DNA of 62,937 nt, counting the filler, from Vannella sp. (taxonomy: Eukaryota): assembly GCA_023345925.1 (NCBI GenBank). It is 6 parts of 6 records of this genome, joined end to end, with 100 filler letters (N's around TTAATTAATTAA, not from the genome) between each part and the next. Parts side by side here need not be neighbours in the genome. Positions count along the whole stretch, not along the records: positions 18,992 to 28,680 come from JAJQQN010000523.1; positions 28,781 to 40,605 come from JAJQQN010000432.1; 4 more parts are not named here. The stretch is one strand, 5' to 3'. This document shows, one piece after another, positions 10,088 to 40,308 of this stretch. The notes below the pieces were generated by a model. That model was not told where the DNA came from, did no database searches, and was given only the letters and a program-made list of their open reading frames with translations. Each line of letters begins with the position of its first letter. Within the stretch, counting starts at the first letter, position 1. Made by a program: the position numbers and the translations under genes.

Positions 10088-10187
10088 NNNNNNNNNNNNN
10101 NNNNNNNNNNNNNNNNNNNNNNNNNNNNNNNTTAATTAATTAANNNNNNNNNNNNNNNNNNNNNNNNNNNNNNNNNNNNNNNNNNNN
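10088..10187. other. Artificial contig linker (N-TTAATTAATTAA-N)
   Basis: 100-nt N run with a central all-frame stop linker; identical at five places. Confidence 0.97.
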
Positions 10188-23325: not shown

Positions 23326-26300
23326 ATGGACGAGGACGAGTTGCACGAAATCTGCAACAACGGGGATGTTGACGGACTTCGCAAGTTCATTCGAGACGCT
23401 CCTACTGGATATGATTTCAATCAATATGAGGTGAGAGCCTTCACCCCCAAAGGTGACCTGATCCTGACCTCTCTCAGAACGTAAGTGCGAACTTTACCAC
23501 TCCCAGACTCTTCTAAGATATAGCTTGCACCATAGTGGGTAAGTGGAGTGTTACACGTCTTCTGGCTCTCCTGCTGACCAAGTCGTCATCGCGTCCACCA
23601 TTCTAGAAAGTAAGTGAAGCTCAGAGGCGATCATTGGCAAAGTTAAGAAGCTCACGTATCACTCCTTTTAGTGGGTGAGTCTCCTTACAGCGTCGAACAA
23701 GCGCGCAGAGATTGACCGGCGATCCTCCTTCTTTTTAGAGAGTAGGTGATGGCCCCGCCTTCTGGCTTTGATTGACATACTAACTATACTATTCTCCTTC
23801 AACAGTACGTAAGTGGCTAACTGACACTGTCACTTCACCGTGGACTGAACGAGGTTCCCCCTCAGACTCCGCTTGGTATTGCTTGCAAGAAGGGGCACTT
23901 GGAGGTGGCGAAGATCTTAGCTGCGCATTCTGGCGTGAACCTTGAGCAGGTGAGTGCTCACCAGAGCGGTGTCCCGCGCACAACATCGACGAACAATCGG
24001 GACTGACCCAACTTGGGGCAGGGCGTAAGTCTTCAGCTCTTTGGGAACTCGCTGTACTAGACTCTCATCAGTAACTAACCTTTGGGTGACTCCCGTTGTG
24101 GATTAGTGGGTAAGAGGACCATCCTTTGCACTGGAGTGTGGGCGCGATAGACGAGGGCGAGCTAACAGGTCTTCTAGGTGGTAGGTTTACACTAATTGGG
24201 AAGGGATAAAGCACCAAGCTCATGGAACCGAACTCTAGGGCGTACGTGCTTTCTTCCTTCCCTTCCTGAACTCACAACCGGGAAGGAATGGGTAAGGTGT
24301 TGAGACGAGGGCGTGCCACGCGCTAACTCTGCCTTTGCTTTCTTATAGGGAGTAGGTGGCCTCTTCCAAGAGTGAGGGATTGATACTAACCTACTTTGGG
24401 AGCTTAGCTGGTGAGAGTAAGTTGTTGGATGTTCCTGCGTTTGTACCTGCGTTTCTCTCTCCTCACAACAAGCGATAGACGCCATTAGAAGTGGCTTGTT
24501 CGTCAGGCGAGGACGAGATTGTCAAGTTTCTGGTTGAGAAGCAAGTGGATGTCACCCCAAAGGTAGTTCTAACGCATAAGAGCTCCCTCCAGTGCTGATG
24601 CCTTGCTGCAGGCTTTCTTAAACTACGCTAAGCAGACCATTCGAGACAAGAAGATGAGCAAAATAGCCAACTCCAACCCCACAGAGGAGCGTGACTCACC
24701 GACAAAGCGCGCTGATGAGGCACGCCGGCAGGAGGACGAGCAGGAGAGGGAGAGGCTGTCACGAGAGAACAAGAACCTCACCAGGGATGTGAGCCGCCTC
24801 AAGAACGAGGTGTCTTTCCTCAAGGACGAAGCACAACGCCAGGAGGAGCGACTGAAGAGTGCTCGCAGCCGCTCCGACAGAGACCGGGAGGCGCTCATAG
24901 AGGAAGTCAAGACCCGAAACATTGACATCGTGCCCAGCCCCAGAGGCCGCTCATCCTCTGTGGTGGAGATCAGAGAGGTGATCAAAGAGGTGCCGGTGAT
25001 CACAGAAGTCATCAAGGAGGTGATTCGCGAGATCCATGTCCCAGGCGGGGTTGCTGGTCCCACGTATGAGTCCGAAGGGTGGTGGGGCGAGGCCAATGCA
25101 GTTCTGGAAGACACGATTGCCCTCAATCAGAAGCGAATTGGCCTTGTGGATCGAGTAGAAGTTGTTGCGGATCACCTGCGCAAGTACCGCAAGGCGGGCG
25201 GATCCACTCCCAAGAACCGCCGAGCGGCTGGACCCGTCAACCTTCGTGACGATCACAACACAATCTCTAAAAGCCACGCCAGCTGGAAGAAAATCCTGAC
25301 CGACGGCCTCGAGAGCTTCTTCGCGGGTGATTTCGGCAAGGACAACTCCATTGACGTCACCAAGATCAACCTTGTCATCAAAGCTGCTCGTAAGGAACAA
25401 GAGAAGTGCCAAGAACACATCAGAGGCTTCTACGCCAAGCTAGAGGACCTCGATAACGATAATGAGAGCGCTGACATGTCCCAAATCCGCCAGCGCAAGA
25501 AAGTTATTGAAGATCTGAAGACTACCATCCAAGGCATTGCCGACCAGTACAAATTCCAGCTCCCTGATATTGAGAAAGAGATCGCAAGTTCCGATTGCAT
25601 TCCAAGTGACCTGGAAGATATGCTGAATCTCTGGAGTTCCTGGTACAGTCGCTATCAGAACTCTACCACTTCTGCTGCTTTGAACGAGCTCTCCCGCTCT
25701 CTTGCTACAACTCTTGTCTCTGCCAAGGAGGTGCTGCAGTTCCTCAAACGAGAGGAATCCATCTTTAACTTGCCTACGATTGGAGCTGCGCCACTTCCCG
25801 TGGTGAATATCCAGCAGTACCCAGCCATTCCCACCCAATTCGTTGAGTTCCTCATTTGCTGCTTCCGTTGGGCAGCTTCAGTCAGAGCTTTCTACAAGAA
25901 GCAGATTAAGTCAGATACTGAGACTTACCGCCAGCAGCAAGCTCGCGACGAAGTCCGTGCTCGTGTCCACACCATAGAAACTCAGATTGGGCAACATCTG
26001 GTTGAGGAACAGCAGATCGATAACATGGTCAATGAATTCCAGAAGATCAAGATCTCCTTGAAGAAGATGATGAGCTCCATCGCCCGCGATGATAGTAAGC
26101 TTTTGGACTATGAGATCACCATGGAAGAAGCAGACTTCAACGATGACGCTGAGATGACTAAGGAGGACATTGAAGAGCAGATGAAGAACACTTGCCAACG
26201 CATTGGACAGACAAAGGAACACCTTTGCACCATTCAGGAGCAGAAGCGATTGATTCTTCGCAACTTGCGGAACTTTGCCCTCCGAGGCCACTTGCTGGTT

Positions 26301-28370
26301 CTTGCTAACACGGAGATTTTCGACTCTCAGGGATTCCGAAATGAGCTCCTTCGGGGAGGTATGGAAGACCTGTACTTGGTCGGAGAGAACATCACAGATT
26401 ATGAGCAAATTGAATCGTTTGCCAAGTGTGTGGCCAAGTACCGGCACAAACAAGACGCCGGAAAGATCTGCGTCATGAAGCGCTACGAGATTATGGACGA
26501 GCAACAAGTCAAGTTCTTCCGCAACGAGCTCAAACTCCTCCGCAAGATGCAGCACCCTTTCGTTGGGAGCGTCGTCGGTGTTCTCTTCACCAAGAGTGAA
26601 GCTTACATCCAACTGCCTTATTATTCTGGCGGCAGCCTCCGCGATCGATGTGTTACCATTCAGCAGAAGCGCACACAATCTGACTACGCCAACAAGCACG
26701 AGCAGCGAGATTTTCACGAGATGAAGCGAATCTTCCACGAGGTGCTCCAAGCGTTGGCTTACTTGCACTCGCAATCTATCACTCACTATGATGTCAAGCC
26801 CGAGAATATCGTATTCGACGAGTACGAGCATCCCATTCTCATTGATTTTGGCATCAGCGAGGATCCCAACAGCACTCTCTTCACTCAGAATCCTGAGAAT
26901 GCCAGCTCACAAATTCGTGGGAGTGTGGGGTACATTGCACCAGAGATCAAGTCTGGCCAACCCTCCATTCTCACTTCAGATTGCTGGTCCTTTGGCGTGA
27001 TGCTCTTTGAGTCATTCTACGACCTGCCTAACTTTGACCTGGAAAGCTTGGGACTGGTGGAGATTCCAGCACACTCTGACGAGGATCTGCGGGCTCTGTT
27101 GAAGGGACTACTCAACACGGACCCCTCTCGGCGATTCACAGCATCTCAAGCCCTTAAAAGCGCATTCTTCTCTCAGAAGTCGTACGAGAAAGCCTTTGAC
27201 AGGGAGAGTACAGTTCAATCTGCCAAGAAGCTGGAGGCTTTCCGCCACTTCCTGGAGATCATTCGCAACAACGATCGTCTTTTCATCATCAACATTCACC
27301 GCGAAGTGTTGGTGAAAGACATCTTCACCGAGTTCCGCAGCAAGACAGCGAACCCTGAAGCTATGCGATTCCAAACCGTCGTCCAGTACATTGGCGAGAG
27401 TGGCATCGACACGGGGGGTCTCCGCCGCGACCTTTACTGCTCCTTCTTTAAGGAGATCTGCGATAGCAAGTATGGCATGTTTGAACTCAGCAGCGAGGGC
27501 AAGTTCTATTACCCCATTCCAGACAAGGACCGCAAGCAGAGCTTAGAAGAGCAGTATCTTCTCTTTGGCAAGATCCTGGCCAAGACTATGATTGACGGGG
27601 ACGTCATTGGAGACTATTTCCCCATCACTCTGTTCAAGTTCCTTGCGGACCAGCAGGATACCATCGACCTTTCTGATGTCTATCTGTACGATAAGCAGCT
27701 TTATGGGAACTTACAGTCATTGCTTATGCAGTCCATTGATGGGTGGGAGCTTGATTGGGACATTGACGAGAATCCCAACAACTACGAACTCATTGATGAC
27801 CGCAACAAGGACGTTTACATCCTCCTGAAGAGTCGCTCAGTGCTGATTGACCAAAGGAAAGAGGCGCTCAATGCGATTAAGAAGGGCTTCCAATCCGTGC
27901 CTGAATTACTGTCTCACTTGGCCCTCTTATCGCCAGTGGAACTGCGCCTCCTCCTCAGCGGAGAGACGTACATTGACGGTGACATGGTTCTGCATCAGAT
28001 TGAGTTTGAGGAGCGGTGGGAGAAGCCAGATGCTCAGGCTACACGAAAGAACTTCTCCAAATGGATCCGGACAGAAGCCAGCTCGGACCAGCTGAAGATG
28101 GTCCTCATGCTGACAACTGCCTCGCCCACCATCCCCGTTGGTGGCTTCAGCCCTCCCATCAAGGTCCGCTATGTTGATGGTAAGCAACTCCCTCTGCGTT
28201 CTCACTCCCTTCTGACATGAACCAACTCAGATTCGACTCGGTTGCCCGAAGGGCAGACTTGCGTCAACATGCTCATGCTTCCTAACTACAAGGATGATTA
28301 CGCTCTATTAACCAAGCGCTTTTCAACCGCTTTGGAGAACATTGGATCGAGCGGGTTCCAACTCAACTAA
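23326..28370 (+). CDS. Ankyrin-repeat (microexon-encoded loops) - coiled-coil - protein kinase - HECT E3 ligase fusion
   Basis: Exon 23326-23430 (MDEDELHEICNNGDVDGLRKFI...FNQYE); 6 microexons; exon 23866-23949 (TPLGIACKKGHLEVAKILAAHSGVNLEQ); 7 microexons; exon 24479-24562 (TPLEVACSSGEDEIVKFLVEKQVDVTPK); exon 24612-28179 with kinase (VMK, HYDVKPEN, DFG, GYIAPE) and HECT (GESGIDTGGLRRD); last exon 28231-28370 with the catalytic Cys motif LPEGQTCVNMLMLPNY and TAA. Confidence 0.9.
23478..23808 (+). other. Microexon array A1: six 3-nt exons AAC, TGG, AAA, TGG, AGA, TAC (N W K W R Y)
   Basis: Positions 23478, 23536, 23607, 23672, 23739, 23806; each is yAG|NNN|GTRRGT, separated by 47-68-nt introns with branch-point-like motifs. 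Confidence 0.85.
24022..24410 (+). other. Microexon array A2: GGC, TGG, GTG, GGC, GAATGG (6 nt), GGA, CTG (G W V G EW G L)
   Basis: Positions 24022, 24107, 24178, 24239, 24286-24291, 24349, 24408; each flanked by an AG acceptor and a GTAAG/GTAGG/GTACG/GTGAG donor. Confidence 0.82.
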
Positions 28371-28510
28371 CCAGTTGGTTTCCAAACCATAAATGGGTCA
28401 TCCATTCTGCCTTGGTCCATTAACCTCTCCAGGATGGCGCCAATGGAAAGAGGGCTGCAGAAGGGGTATTCTGAAGTTCTCTGACCTTCCAGGCCATGCT
28501 TGTTTGTCCT

Positions 28511-28645
28511 AGGACAAGCTCCACCTTGGGATGGGAGATGGATGTGGACTTTCAACCTTCCAGAGAGAATCCACGAGCGAAGGGGAAGAGGGCAGAACTC
28601 GTGTTTGCGTAGCTTGTCCTGATGACCTCCATCTCCTTTTTCTTT
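28511..28645. repeat. Dispersed structured repeat / candidate ncRNA, copy 1
   Basis: Core CGTAGCTTGTCCTGATGACCTCCATCTCC shared with 29054-29081 and 40403-40430; inverted repeat GGAGATGGA (28534) / TCCATCTCC (28628) followed by TTTTCTTTT. Confidence 0.6.
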
Positions 28646-28680
28646 TCGCCTTCCGCGGGTCGCACCTCTCTCCGTGCGAT

Positions 28681-28780
28681 NNNNNNNNNNNNNNNNNNNN
28701 NNNNNNNNNNNNNNNNNNNNNNNNTTAATTAATTAANNNNNNNNNNNNNNNNNNNNNNNNNNNNNNNNNNNNNNNNNNNN
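28681..28780. other. Artificial contig linker
   Basis: N-TTAATTAATTAA-N, 100 nt. Confidence 0.97.
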
Positions 28781-28920
28781 ATCAGCTGGATGTGTATCTC
28801 TGCATCCGGTCTGATGTCACGAAAGGCCAAAAGGTCCTCATCTTCAAAGATCACATCCGCAGTCACCTCTTTCCTCGCAATACGACAAAAAATGCAATCC
28901 GCCTCTCCGACCTCTCCCAT
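28781..28920 (-). CDS. HIT-family (HINT-like) nucleotide-binding protein, 5' fragment
   Basis: DCIFCRIARKE...VIFEDEDLLAFRDIRPDAEIH is the HINT N-terminus; truncated by the linker. Confidence 0.85.
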
Positions 28921-28965
28921 CCCGCACCAACACGAAATGGCTCCCACACGAGAGCATTACTTCTA

Positions 28966-29103
28966 GGAGATGGAGCATGTTCCAGAGTCGTCCTGCTCTT
29001 CGCATGTTTGGAGAAAATCCACGAGTGAAGGGGCAGAACCCATGTTTGAATTTCGTAGCTTGCCCTGATGACCTCCATCTCTTCAGGATAAGCTTTTGGA
29101 CTT
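28966..29103. repeat. Dispersed structured repeat / candidate ncRNA, copy 2
   Basis: GGAGATGGAG...AATCCACGAGTGAAGGGGCAGAAC...CGTAGCTTGCCCTGATGACCTCCATCTCTTCAGGATAAGCTTTTGGACT. Confidence 0.62.
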
Positions 29104-29257
29104 ATTTCATTTTTTCGCTTTTTGGATGTTTGAGGACCCAAACAAGGGGAAATGCCCTCGCCGCTCGTTTGCTGTTTCCCTAGAACTGACAATTTTAAAA
29201 ATCTTTGAGCAAATAAAATGATTAGAAGGAAAAGGCTTCATTTTGGTTCCTCTTTCG

Positions 29258-30016
29258 ATGAGCGACCTCAAGGCCCAGTGGGGAGAGATCGTTTCCAAGC
29301 CAGTGGATGAACAAGTGAAACTCTTTCTGAGAGCCTTTGTGTTGGAGTTCCAGGGCAAGTTCGAAGAGGTGTTGAACATCGCCGACAACTTTAAGAACTT
29401 CCGAGAAGGCGTGGAGGAGTCTGAGCGCAAGAACATTCGAGAGTTAGGAGAGTTTGAGTGCCATTGCTTCTTGGAGAAGAGAGGAGAGACCTTGACCGTC
29501 CGTGACCTTCGAGAGAACCTGAAAGCTGAAATCCGCTTGGACCCTCACCACAACGTTGCCATCCTCGAGTACTTGCTTTGGAAGTACCAGAAGAGCTTGC
29601 AGCAGCTATTTACTCCCCCTCCTGAAGGTTCTGTCCCTGCGCACCTTCTTGCAGCTTTGGATGAAGCTATCGAGGCCCACAACGCTGCTCTGGAGGCCGA
29701 GAGACAGCGCCAACTCAAGATCAAGAGTCTAGCAGAGGCTGAAGCTAGCTCTCGCAATGAACTAGAGCGCCACACCGCAAACAAGGAGAAGTCCAACCTC
29801 GAAGGTCAAGAGTTTGGAGCTGCCTTTGCCCAAATGCAAGCCCGCAAGAAGAAGAGAGAGGCAGAGGAAGCACTGAAGAACGCAGAGAAAGTGGATCCCT
29901 TCCAAGAGGAACAAAAGCGCCTGGCAGAGGAGAAAGCAAAGCGCGAGGAAGAGGAGAAACGTCAAAAGGACGAGAGCCGCTCCCGCCTAGCTGCCAAGGC
30001 CTCTCTGTGGAAGTAA
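29258..30016 (+). CDS. Calcium-regulated actin-bundling protein (ABP34)-like protein with coiled-coil tail
   Basis: KPVDEQVKLFLRAF and TLTVRDLRENLKAEIRLDPHHNVAILEYLLWKY resemble the Dictyostelium 34-kDa bundling protein family (from recall, not searched). Confidence 0.7.
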   Translation: MSDLKAQWGEIVSKPVDEQVKLFLRAFVLEFQGKFEEVLNIADNFKNFREGVEESERKNIRELGEFECHCFLEKRGETLTVRDLRENLKAEIRLDPHHNVAILEYLLWKYQKSLQQLFTPPPEGSVPAHLLAALDEAIEAHNAALEAERQRQLKIKSLAEAEASSRNELERHTANKEKSNLEGQEFGAAFAQMQARKKKREAEEALKNAEKVDPFQEEQKRLAEEKAKREEEEKRQKDESRSRLAAKASLWK

Positions 30017-30218
30017 TCTTCCTCGACCTTGATAAACGGACTGCCTTGTGCTCCTCTAGAACGAATAACAATCTCTCTCCATGACGAAGTCCAGACTTCG
30101 TGGACTTTAATGCGCTTTGTTGTAGAATGACCGCATTTTGAACGAAAAATGAATTCTGGAGAGTCCTGGAAGAAGATCATTCTTAGTCATATTATTGGCC
30201 ATTTCCTTTTCCTTGCTG

Positions 30219-32494
30219 ATGGCACACACGGGTGGCCTCCGAGACGCCATTTACTCTGGCAATTTGAGCCAGTTGAAGGCGTGTTTGGACGCCAATCCTG
30301 AGGCTCTTAACCAAGTGGGTCCTCCTTCACTTTGAGAAAGCTATCTTTTGAGAAGGAGAGGCTTGATGAAGGAGAAGACTCACCAAAAGGGGATCATTTA
30401 AGATTGTTAGTGACACATTACCTCGCTAAGGAGAAGCAGGCGAATACAGTACACTAAAACGGTCTCTTTTAGTGGGTAAGTGATTGATCCATAACCTTTC
30501 ATGAGGAAAAGGAGATTTCCAGAAGATCCTGATCAGAGAAGAGAGGTTCTCACCGAAAGTCTCATGTAGGAGGTCAGTAACTCATTGAAGGAATCTTCTT
30601 GAGAAGGAGATGAGAGAAGAACTCACTAAAAAGGCTCATTCAGCAAGTAAGGACTGATCTGCTGCTCCCTTTTATGATAAGATCAGCTCATTCAAATGAA
30701 CTTTAGGATGTGAGTACCTATGTACTTCTGATGAGGAGATGGACCCACTTGATCAGAAAAACTCACCAAAAGTCCCCTTAGCGAGTAAGGATAGTTAGTC
30801 AGATAGAGAGGAGGGCCATTCATCATGATGGGCCTTTCAGGGCGTAGGTTACCATTTCAAAAGAGAAGAATTCAGCAAACGGATCTCTTTTAGTGGGTAA
30901 GTGACTGATTGATCCATCACCTGCCTTTGGAAAACCAGAGATTCAACAAGAGAAAATACCATAAGGCTCACTTAGAGTCTCGTTTAGTATGTAAGTGACA
31001 AACTGTCATCTGGTTTGATGAAGAAAGCCTTCTCTAAAATGTTGTGTTTAGGAAGTAAGTGATTCTAAGAGAGAAGAAGAACTCACCAAAAGCGCCCCTT
31101 TCAGAAAGTAAGTGACTGATATCCTAAGTTGATGAGCTTGAGAGAGGGGAATTCACCAAAATGGTCTGTTTTTAGAGCGTAAGCGACTGGTTCATTACTT
31201 TCAAACCGGCCATATGAAGGACATGTACTCATCAGGGCTTTGCTTAGTGGGTAAGTGATTCAATCCATCACTTTTGAGAAAAGACTCTCAGAAGGAAAGG
31301 AAATTGCGAGACACTGATCAATCGAGTCCAATTTAGGCAGTAAGTTATCAGGCTGTAAGCTGATTAGAAAACTGTTCCCCAAGACAAGGAGTAGTGCTCA
31401 TTAAATGATGAATCTCTTTTAGTGGGTAAGGAACTGAATGATCATCTCTATTTGGAGAAAGGAACTAATTATCACTTTAGGTAAGTTGCTGGGATTGCTA
31501 CCTACTCCCCCTGCCAATGATTCATAGGATACCTTTGAAAATTGCTCACAAGCTTGAAGACCATTCTAGGATGGGCTTCGTTTCAAGGATGGGACAAAAT
31601 AGTAGAGTTCTTGGTTACTCGACGTGGCATCGACCTTCAAAAAGGAGTATGTTCAAGGTTTGTGAGAGATTCTTCTCACATGATTTTTCAGAATGTAAGT
31701 TCTTTCTATCAGTGTCTAGAACTTGAGGTGGCTAGGTGAGTCAGCTTTACCAAGATATAACCTTGATTGAATGATAATCTTATTGACCCTGAGATTCAAG
31801 AGTTCGTGTTCACATACCGTGCTCCTGAAAATTCTCGAGAGACTCTGAGATAAGGAAGAAGAACTCACCAAAAGACTTTAGACGGTGAGTGATCGATTCA
31901 TCTCTGCTTTTGAGGAGAGGAGCTGCACTATCAGCAGGGAAAATAGCTCACAGAGAAGAATTATTTAGAGAGTGCGTGATTTTTTCCACCTTATGAGGAA
32001 AAGTACTTCTTGAATGGAACTTGGTCAGAGGTTTATGAGGAGAAACTGACCAAGTTCTGAACTTTAGGGAGTGAGTGACTCAAAAATCACGGTAGAATGG
32101 AGGTGAGCATTACTGAAGATGTTTTAGGATGTAAGTGCCTCATGCATACTCCTTGATGTTGAGCGGATGCGAAGAAAAGACTCAAACTGACTAAGGAATG
32201 TAATTTAGACAGTGAGTAACTGATCACTCTTTGGTGAAAACCCTCTCACGTGGGGCATGCTCAGTTGGTAGGTAGTAGACTATCACTACAAGAAAAACTA
32301 ACCGAAACCGGATTCAGTCCTCGCTGGATCTAGCTCTGCGTCGAGGACCCACACACAATGCAGTTATTGAAATTCTCATCTCTGCAGGGGCAAAGTGCAA
32401 AGATGTGCGAAATCTGAGTGTCTACCAAGGAGTACTTACTTCAGCAGGAGCAAACTTTGATGGAAAAATATCTGGGGGAGAAGAACCAGGCTGA
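30219..32494 (+). CDS. Small stand-alone three-ankyrin-repeat protein with microexon-encoded loops (not in ORF track)
   Basis: Exon 30219-30314 (MAHTGGLRDAIYSGNLSQLKACLDANPEALNQ); 15 microexons; exon 31560-31646 (TILGWASFQGWDKIVEFLVTRRGIDLQKG); 7 microexons; exon 32318-32494 (SSLDLALRRGPTHNAVIEILISAGAK...EPG*). All junctions are phase 0. Confidence 0.85.
30403..31425 (+). other. Microexon array B1: fifteen 3-nt exons ATT TGG GAG CAA GAT CGA GGC TGG TAT GAA AAA AGC TGG GCA TGG (I W E Q D R G W Y E K S W A W)
   Basis: Starts at 30403, 30473, 30570, 30644, 30707, 30782, 30841, 30894, 30988, 31052, 31105, 31176, 31248, 31337, 31423; each AG|NNN|GT, usually with an upstream CTCAC/CTCAT-like branch motif. 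Confidence 0.87.
31692..32267 (+). other. Microexon array B2: AAT, ACG, AGA, GGA, GAT, ACA, TTG (N T R G D T L)
   Basis: Starts at 31692, 31882, 31969, 32068, 32128, 32209, 32265; each yAG|NNN|GT. Additional ambiguous sites at ~31735 and ~31801. Confidence 0.82.
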
Positions 32495-39726: not shown

Positions 39727-40308
39727 ATGCAATCAATCAAGTGTGTCGCTGTTGGGGACGGTGCTGTCGGAAAGACGTGCCTTCTGACCACTTACACAAC
39801 CAACTCCTTCCCCAGTGACTACGCTCCGACGATCTTCATCAACTACGCGCGCGAAGTCATGGTGGATAACAAGGCTGTTCACTTGGGCTTGTGGGACACC
39901 GCAGGACAAGAAGACTACGATCGCATTCGCCCCCTTTCCTATCCCCAGACCGATGTGTTCCTCGCATGCTTCTCCGTGATCTCCCCAACCTCCAGAGATA
40001 ACATCAAGTCCAAGTGGGCTCCAGAGATTCGCCACCACTGCCCCTCTGCCTCCGTGATCCTCGTGGGAACCAAGATCGACTTGCGAGATGACCCCGCCAT
40101 CACCTCCCGTTTGGCCGAGCGTGACCTTCCCATCACTTTTACTGAGGGATTGGAGTGCTCCAAGCAGATCCATGCGAACAAGTACATCGAATGCTCTGCC
40201 TTGACACAACAGGGAATGAAGAATGTGTTTGACGAAGCCATCCGCTCGGTCACTGCTCCTCCATCCTCTAAGCCCTCCAAAAAGAAGGCTCCTTGCTCTC
40301 TCTTATAA
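39727..40308 (+). CDS. Rac/Rho-family small GTPase
   Basis: [44 protein letters not shown], polybasic region + CSLL CAAX box. Intronless. Confidence 0.96.

Follow-up and report, generated by a model that had tools for sequence, protein, structure and literature searches.

The window analysed here is a stretch of 62,937 nt from the genome of Vannella sp. (assembly GCA_023345925.1). Six pieces are joined in it by N-linkers with a TTAA-type core at 10088, 18892, 28681, 40606 and 55084, and because these linkers join separate pieces, no real gene order can be read across them. For the span 23478–32267 a sequence-only reading had described microexons whose codon content appeared stop-free and paratope-like, that is, rich in Trp, Tyr, Gly and charged residues. 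This span covers two genes, one on each side of the linker 28681–28780, and genes A and B are therefore perhaps not genomic neighbours. Gene A (23326 to about 28370) starts with short ankyrin exons, followed by an exon of 1189 codons carrying a kinase and a HECT domain; gene B (30219–32494) is a small ankyrin-like gene. Each of them is predicted to contain two arrays of codon-sized exons:

23326–23430, plus strand: gene A exon 1, 35 codons, with ATG start, GTGAG donor and phase 0 end; predicted ankyrin N-cap (by eye), no Pfam match by itself
23478–23808, plus strand: array A1, six predicted 3-nt exons (Asn, Trp, Lys, Trp, Arg, Tyr), introns of 47–68 nt
23866–23949, plus strand: gene A ankyrin exon, TPL start, both ends in phase 0; Pfam Ank match above the cut-off (E 2e-4)
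24022–24410, plus strand: array A2, six predicted 3-nt exons (Gly, Trp, Val, Gly, Gly, Leu) and one 6-nt exon
24286–24291, plus strand: the predicted 6-nt exon of array A2 (Glu, Trp), with AAG acceptor
24479–24562, plus strand: second gene A ankyrin exon, TPL start; Pfam Ank_3, E 6e-5, over the cut-off
24612–28179, plus strand: gene A long exon, with a predicted coiled region, protein kinase (Pkinase, E 3e-38) and HECT ubiquitin ligase (E 2e-31)
from 28231, plus strand: gene A last exon
30219–30314, plus strand: gene B exon 1, 32 codons, phase 0; predicted ankyrin N-cap, no Pfam match
30403–31425, plus strand: array B1, 16 predicted 3-nt exons (in order Ile, Trp, Glu, Gln, Asp, Arg, Gly, Trp, Tyr, Glu, Lys, Ser, Trp, Ala, Ala, Trp)
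31560–31646, plus strand: ankyrin-like exon of gene B, both ends in phase 0; Pfam Ank_3 match under the cut-off (E 0.053)
31692–32267, plus strand: array B2, seven predicted 3-nt exons (Asn, Thr, Arg, Gly, Asp, Thr, Leu)
32318–32494, plus strand: last exon of gene B, judged by eye an ankyrin-like C-cap, followed by the stop; nothing found by Pfam

The arrays are well above chance expectation. With 6, 7, 16 and 7 AG-NNN-GT units in A1, A2, B1 and B2, the array regions hold 36 such sites, against a mean of 1.5 (maximum 6) in 500 dinucleotide shuffles, and the density is 12.2 per kb compared to 0.33 per kb elsewhere. When exon lengths from 1 to 9 nt were tested, only 3 nt was enriched to such a degree. 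The introns between the units measure 45–107 nt, have GT-AG ends and resemble the ordinary 49-nt intron of gene A, and most unit donors are strong. Each array lies between phase-0 ankyrin exons, with the break directly before a TPL-type motif, and in the predicted gene structure each fills one ankyrin hairpin. The ankyrin identity of gene A is given by its two TPL-starting exons, both over the Pfam cut-offs; the exon at 23866–23949 furthermore matches the helices of designed ankyrin proteins (DARPins).

The sequence-only reading had staked translation of such units on stop codons staying below their random frequency in a larger set. At least 117 metagenome stretches matched a pattern of three units in a row. 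From 116 loci, 48 were retained with 56 regular arrays and 861 units, while 68 were discarded because they were microsatellites, monotonous, short or duplicates; 17 overlapping units were also removed, 14 of which were stop-like triplets located four bases off a neighbouring unit. In these 56 arrays, among the matches listed, only two of 861 triplets are in-frame stops, compared to 55 expected from the column frequencies. Before the overlap step there were 16 stops in 883 units against 61 expected, and with each codon counted once per array TAA and TGA together occur twice against 19 expected. The shifted frames contain 24 and 141 stops per 805. Both in-frame stops belong to one locus (L069), the first array of which comes after a phase-2 intron. 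In 44 of the 56 arrays the triplet is more variable than both its flanks. By eye the metagenome loci look fungal, and they support translation of such arrays in other organisms, not directly that of the window arrays. For the latter, the position between phase-0 ankyrin exons, together with the strong avoidance of in-frame stops in like arrays elsewhere, makes translation likely, as the sequence-only reading had argued, and we hold splicing and translation of the units to be highly probable.

A recount of the codons reproduced the earlier tally exactly. The 34 three-base units and the six-base unit considered there provide 36 codons, of which 8 are Trp, 5 Gly, 2 Tyr and 10 charged, with no Pro, Cys or stop; a further Ile unit at 30403–30405, with weaker AAG/GTTAG sites and absent from that set, raises the number to 37. 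Compared to local trinucleotide frequencies, Trp is strongly over-represented (8/36 vs 1.2–2.7%; P 1e-8 to 4e-6). For the charged residues (P 0.12–0.47) and Tyr (P 0.11–0.14) no such deviation was found, and Gly is borderline (P 0.04–0.11). That the window triplets are free of stops is correct as a count, but within the window alone it is not significant (P 0.07–0.26); stop, Pro and Cys are jointly absent with P 0.006–0.009, a grouping picked after the fact. As a second reference we used 118 ankyrin hairpins of bacterial origin, taken from 25 loci after 15 of 133 motifs had been discarded for not resembling repeats. Per 37 codons these predict 11.9 charged residues, 6.6 Gly, 0.9 Tyr, 1.0 Pro plus Cys and 0.7 Trp, whereas 10, 5, 2, 0 and 8, respectively, were observed. 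Thus, the composition is that of an ordinary hairpin except for Trp (8/37 vs 1.8%; P 3e-7). Even against the Trp-richest hairpin position, the one just before TPL with 9.3%, the excess persists (P 0.019), and against the other arrays, in which Trp makes up 3.0% (26/861), Fisher's test gives P 3e-5. In gene A alone 4 of 14 codons are Trp; its introns are unrelated to each other, as are the flanks of the four Trp units. The paratope-like composition hence comes down to Trp, and only in this residue does the earlier description hold.

The geometry of the loops bears on the question how many units can be used at a time. Natural repeats are spaced by 33 residues in 44 of 58 cases, which is also the DARPin period, and by our own alignment to the consensus a 33-residue repeat needs about 4–6 residues at these gaps. 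The arrays offer 6 (A1), 8 (A2), 15–16 (B1) and 7 (B2) codons; all four exceed the need, B1 by about ten. These surplus codons favour a choice of subsets for B1, while the other three arrays are neutral. Since every unit adds a single phase-0 codon, the frame is kept whichever subset is used. At canonical loop length gene B would allow 4,906 x 21, or about 100,000, distinct loop pairs as an upper bound.

Taken together, it appears likely that splicing places the AG-triplet-GT units, each as an exon of one codon, in the hairpin loops of two ankyrin proteins; units separated by introns of this length with normal ends could be joined by ordinary splicing. Selection for binding is likely to favour tryptophan in these loops, and a likely variable inclusion of units would create many loop versions. 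In gene A the varied loops may steer the kinase-HECT ubiquitin-ligase module to its targets, and gene B may be a stand-alone binder belonging to a small family. We consider it rather probable that selection at the protein level causes the Trp excess, and we lean slightly towards variable over fixed inclusion. For the complete reading, with one-codon loop exons, Trp favoured by binding selection and variable inclusion, the chances are close to even but not quite so. The further step to a natural DARPin library generated by splicing, in which Trp-rich subsets and kinase-HECT coupling mark the proteins of intruding bacteria or giant viruses, is doubtful, and an immune role is a guess.

Several points weigh against this reading. 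Gly, Tyr, the charged residues and Pro plus Cys equal those of ordinary hairpins (P 0.2–0.8), and Phe is lacking altogether. In gene B the four Trp units resemble each other more closely than random quartets do (39/7315) and probably share descent. With these copies counted once, Trp falls to 5/34, which is still high compared to hairpins (P 3e-4) and to the other arrays (P 3e-3) but no longer to the richest hairpin position (P 0.2). The hairpin reference is bacterial and the array reference mostly fungal-like, hence neither comes from this lineage. In the window the triplets vary hardly more than the sequence next to them, unlike those in 44 of the 56 other arrays. The ankyrin identity of gene B is weak, with one of its three exons at E 0.053, and the gene shows no match to a small bacterial ankyrin profile. 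In three of the four arrays the surplus over the canonical loop is only some two residues, and a relative from the kinase family, P0315, has ankyrin loops of about 2–12 residues, so that fixed inclusion is structurally possible. Finally, no transcript, peptide or ligand was seen.

In the strongest alternative the units are real exons that are always included. Each gene would then produce a single loop, and variation would exist only between alleles or paralogues, as cassettes of intron and codon are duplicated, lost or mutated. Microbes with short introns seldom skip exons, and the mostly strong donors, the modest surplus in three arrays and the long and short loops of P0315 agree with this explanation. 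The units of B1 are diverged tandem copies, the best pairs being 60–69% alike, and paralogous contigs with other layouts lend it weak support. Furthermore, there is a precedent in Drosophila, where the 3-, 6- and 12-nt exons of sowah are listed in the constitutive sheet of Table S5 (PMC8042270). On the other hand, array B1 would yield a 15-residue insert with four Trp. Only 12 nt separate its two Ala units (31337, 31352), which makes joint splicing impossible and the two mutually exclusive. In addition, codon-less AG|GT sites with good donors occur at 31481 and 31736 inside the gene B arrays; these may represent cassettes whose triplet has been lost, or points of stepwise splicing. The published array precedent, in Tuber, is described as alternatively spliced. 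Constitutive inclusion is thus a possibility to be taken seriously, although we do not regard it as probable.

Contigs from sequencing runs were compared with both genes, the DNA contigs coming from three runs of one study, which is possibly the source sample, and the RNA contigs from two metatranscriptome runs. The gene B contigs fit partly, with a depth of 10–21 at one unit and about 4 elsewhere, and two weak contig joints bypass parts of its arrays. A paralogous contig differs from gene B at the exon 31560–31646, and gene B seems to have paralogues. In the matching DNA contigs none of the listed differences hits a triplet, which at a depth of 2–7 and within one study is uninformative. The RNA contigs, three in number and 151–346 nt long, all fall into the long exon of gene A, short of the arrays, and are neutral on splicing.

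A second alternative accepts the exons as translated but explains the TGG excess by a preference at the RNA level, for a G-run or a terminal G at the donor, together with duplication of one TGG unit. The sequence-only reading itself had warned of the terminal G. The triplets are indeed purine-rich (22, 29 and 25 of 36 by position), TGG and GGN form GGG with the flanking splice sites, and TGG is the most over-represented triplet also in the other arrays (4.5-fold over column frequencies, partly as a by-product of the missing stops); the presumed common descent of the four Trp units in gene B fits as well. However, of the 13 G-ending triplets among the 36, eight are TGG (P 2e-6 against 1/12) and none is AGG, CGG or GGG. 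This share, 8/13, also exceeds the 26/140 found in the other arrays (Fisher P 0.002), 44 of 57 of which lack TGG entirely. Elsewhere in the window TGG precedes only 2 of 112 donor-like sites, many of which are not real donors, and in gene A the four Trp units have unrelated flanks. As the TGG share among G-ending triplets lies far above these references, a terminal G does not explain the Trp. A subtler preference for TGG at the RNA level may still play a part; on the whole this second alternative appears unlikely. A non-coding tandem repeat or an assembly artefact mimicking splice sites is very improbable: although the search pattern catches microsatellites too (the 68 of 116 metagenome loci that failed the array filters) and the RNA contigs end short of the arrays, the gene A spacers have only splice signals in common, the arrays end exactly at ankyrin exon borders, the DNA contigs of the three runs agree across them, and Tandem Repeats Finder reported nothing there.

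The closest known system is found in the truffle Tuber melanosporum, where an expanded NACHT-ankyrin family (nank) is diversified via alternative splicing of codon-sized exons (PMC4986451, PMC13449251, PMC9815663). As far as described there, dozens of 3-bp exons lie in ankyrin-repeat genes, and diversification of a recognition domain was proposed, as for the window genes. The differences are, however, considerable. The truffle family has a NACHT domain, whereas Pfam found NACHT in neither gene A nor gene B and the ankyrin part is coupled to kinase-HECT or stands alone; its host is a fungus and not amoebozoan-like; and its mini-exons are described as alternatively spliced, whereas those of the window are known from DNA alone. 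The window genes are therefore nank-like in gene design but non-members of that family, having no NACHT and not being fungal. The arrays differ also in position: those of the window, with 6–16 units, are inside hairpins, while in L069, the sole NACHT-ankyrin locus compared, they come in phase 2 behind the last repeat. This gene (L069:3711-6638) is likely of nank type.

Pfam searches with 124 reading frames from 13 of the metagenome loci identified NACHT (L038, L069), ankyrin (L069) and CHAT (L001) domains and weak GTPase matches in L028, L055 and L077. An array inside an ankyrin hairpin was found in none of 131 pattern loci, and ankyrin repeats are nearby in two. In L077 (minus strand) a GTPase-like exon is accompanied by a 33-unit array with 6 Trp, and ankyrin repeats lie about 900 nt downstream. 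Up to about 44 one-codon units per array occur in L001, L005, L012, L028, L038, L055, L067, L068, L077 and others, with near-identical spacers and variable, stop-free triplets next to NACHT, CHAT and GTPase domains. A third-base C is rare in these units (11/861), possibly due to methylation at the C-GT junction. Another 15 pattern matches, from viral collections, were set aside since only one short array survived the filter.

Drosophila sowah (FBgn0036302), with the microexons ME2, ME3, ME19 and ME119 of 3, 3, 6 and 12 nt (PMC8042270 Tables S4, S5), likewise has 3-nt exons in an ankyrin-repeat gene. According to these tables there are only two of them, they are constitutive and form no long array, and the four sequences contain no Trp; the domain layout of genes A and B also differs from that of SOWAH. 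Designed ankyrin libraries (DARPin, ANK-N5C) randomise positions in the beta-turn before TPL, which is part of the binding face, and leave out Pro and Cys, both in parallel to the window arrays (PMC4308713, PMC8229355). As described, these libraries are engineered, have a fixed loop length, exclude Gly and vary helix-1 positions too, whereas in the window arrays Gly is frequent and the length of the loop could change. In brown algae exon shuffling is reported for ROCO-LRR and NB-ARC-TPR genes (PMC13449251); there, too, a eukaryote outside the animals varies a repeat-domain sensor by splicing or by exchanging cassettes, but the unit is a whole repeat. At the level of titles and abstracts, with subscription papers and preprint supplements beyond reach, no report of codon-sized arrays in amoebae was found. 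Codon-sized exon arrays themselves are thus already published; new are their location inside hairpins, the amoebozoan-like host, the kinase-HECT partner and the Trp enrichment.

Fusions of kinase and HECT domains are widespread (proteins P0252–P0329), with exchangeable N-terminal repeats. Five relatives are 72–86% alike over the kinase-HECT part of gene A. Among 30 relatives picked from the best 150, all with kinase and HECT, the front end is ankyrin in 6, TPR in 3, LRR in 2, a RanBP zinc finger in 2, RCC1 in 1, a beta-helix in 1 and none of these in 15. As judged from these sequences, such exchangeable repeats would fit a role of the ankyrin part in target recognition, as in sensor-effector proteins. 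A spliced relative carrying loop codons was absent from the best 120 of 318 near-length matches, and a close spliced relative from the best 150 representatives; among shorter proteins one DNA-type fragment matches. No orthologous DNA was present in viral or prokaryote collections, and an atlas search yielded a kinase-HECT cluster only.

The window also contains genes for RWP-RK, trefoil-glucoamylase and methylmalonyl-CoA mutase proteins (Pfam), and RWP-RK genes are not known from fungi. In a tree of RPL15, built from 34 hits picked from 120 listed and including no fungal rows, the window protein groups weakly (81/90) with Echinostelium and Flamella. By these genes and this tree, the host is likely amoebozoan. 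A short dispersed repeat at 28611, 29056 and 40404, with a summed contig depth of 500–1200 in two DNA runs, is likely a small mobile element. At 39727–40305 lies an intronless gene for a Rac-like GTPase with a divergent switch region.

If the inclusion of the units varies, a unicellular phagocyte would diversify a binding surface somatically, down to the single residue, and would have arrived at this independently of truffles. If it is fixed, the arrays would still represent an extreme gene structure, one overlooked by gene callers, since all close database relatives of gene A begin downstream of the arrays. The 48 further loci, at which such arrays adjoin NACHT, CHAT and GTPase domains, indicate that codon-sized arrays are no truffle oddity.

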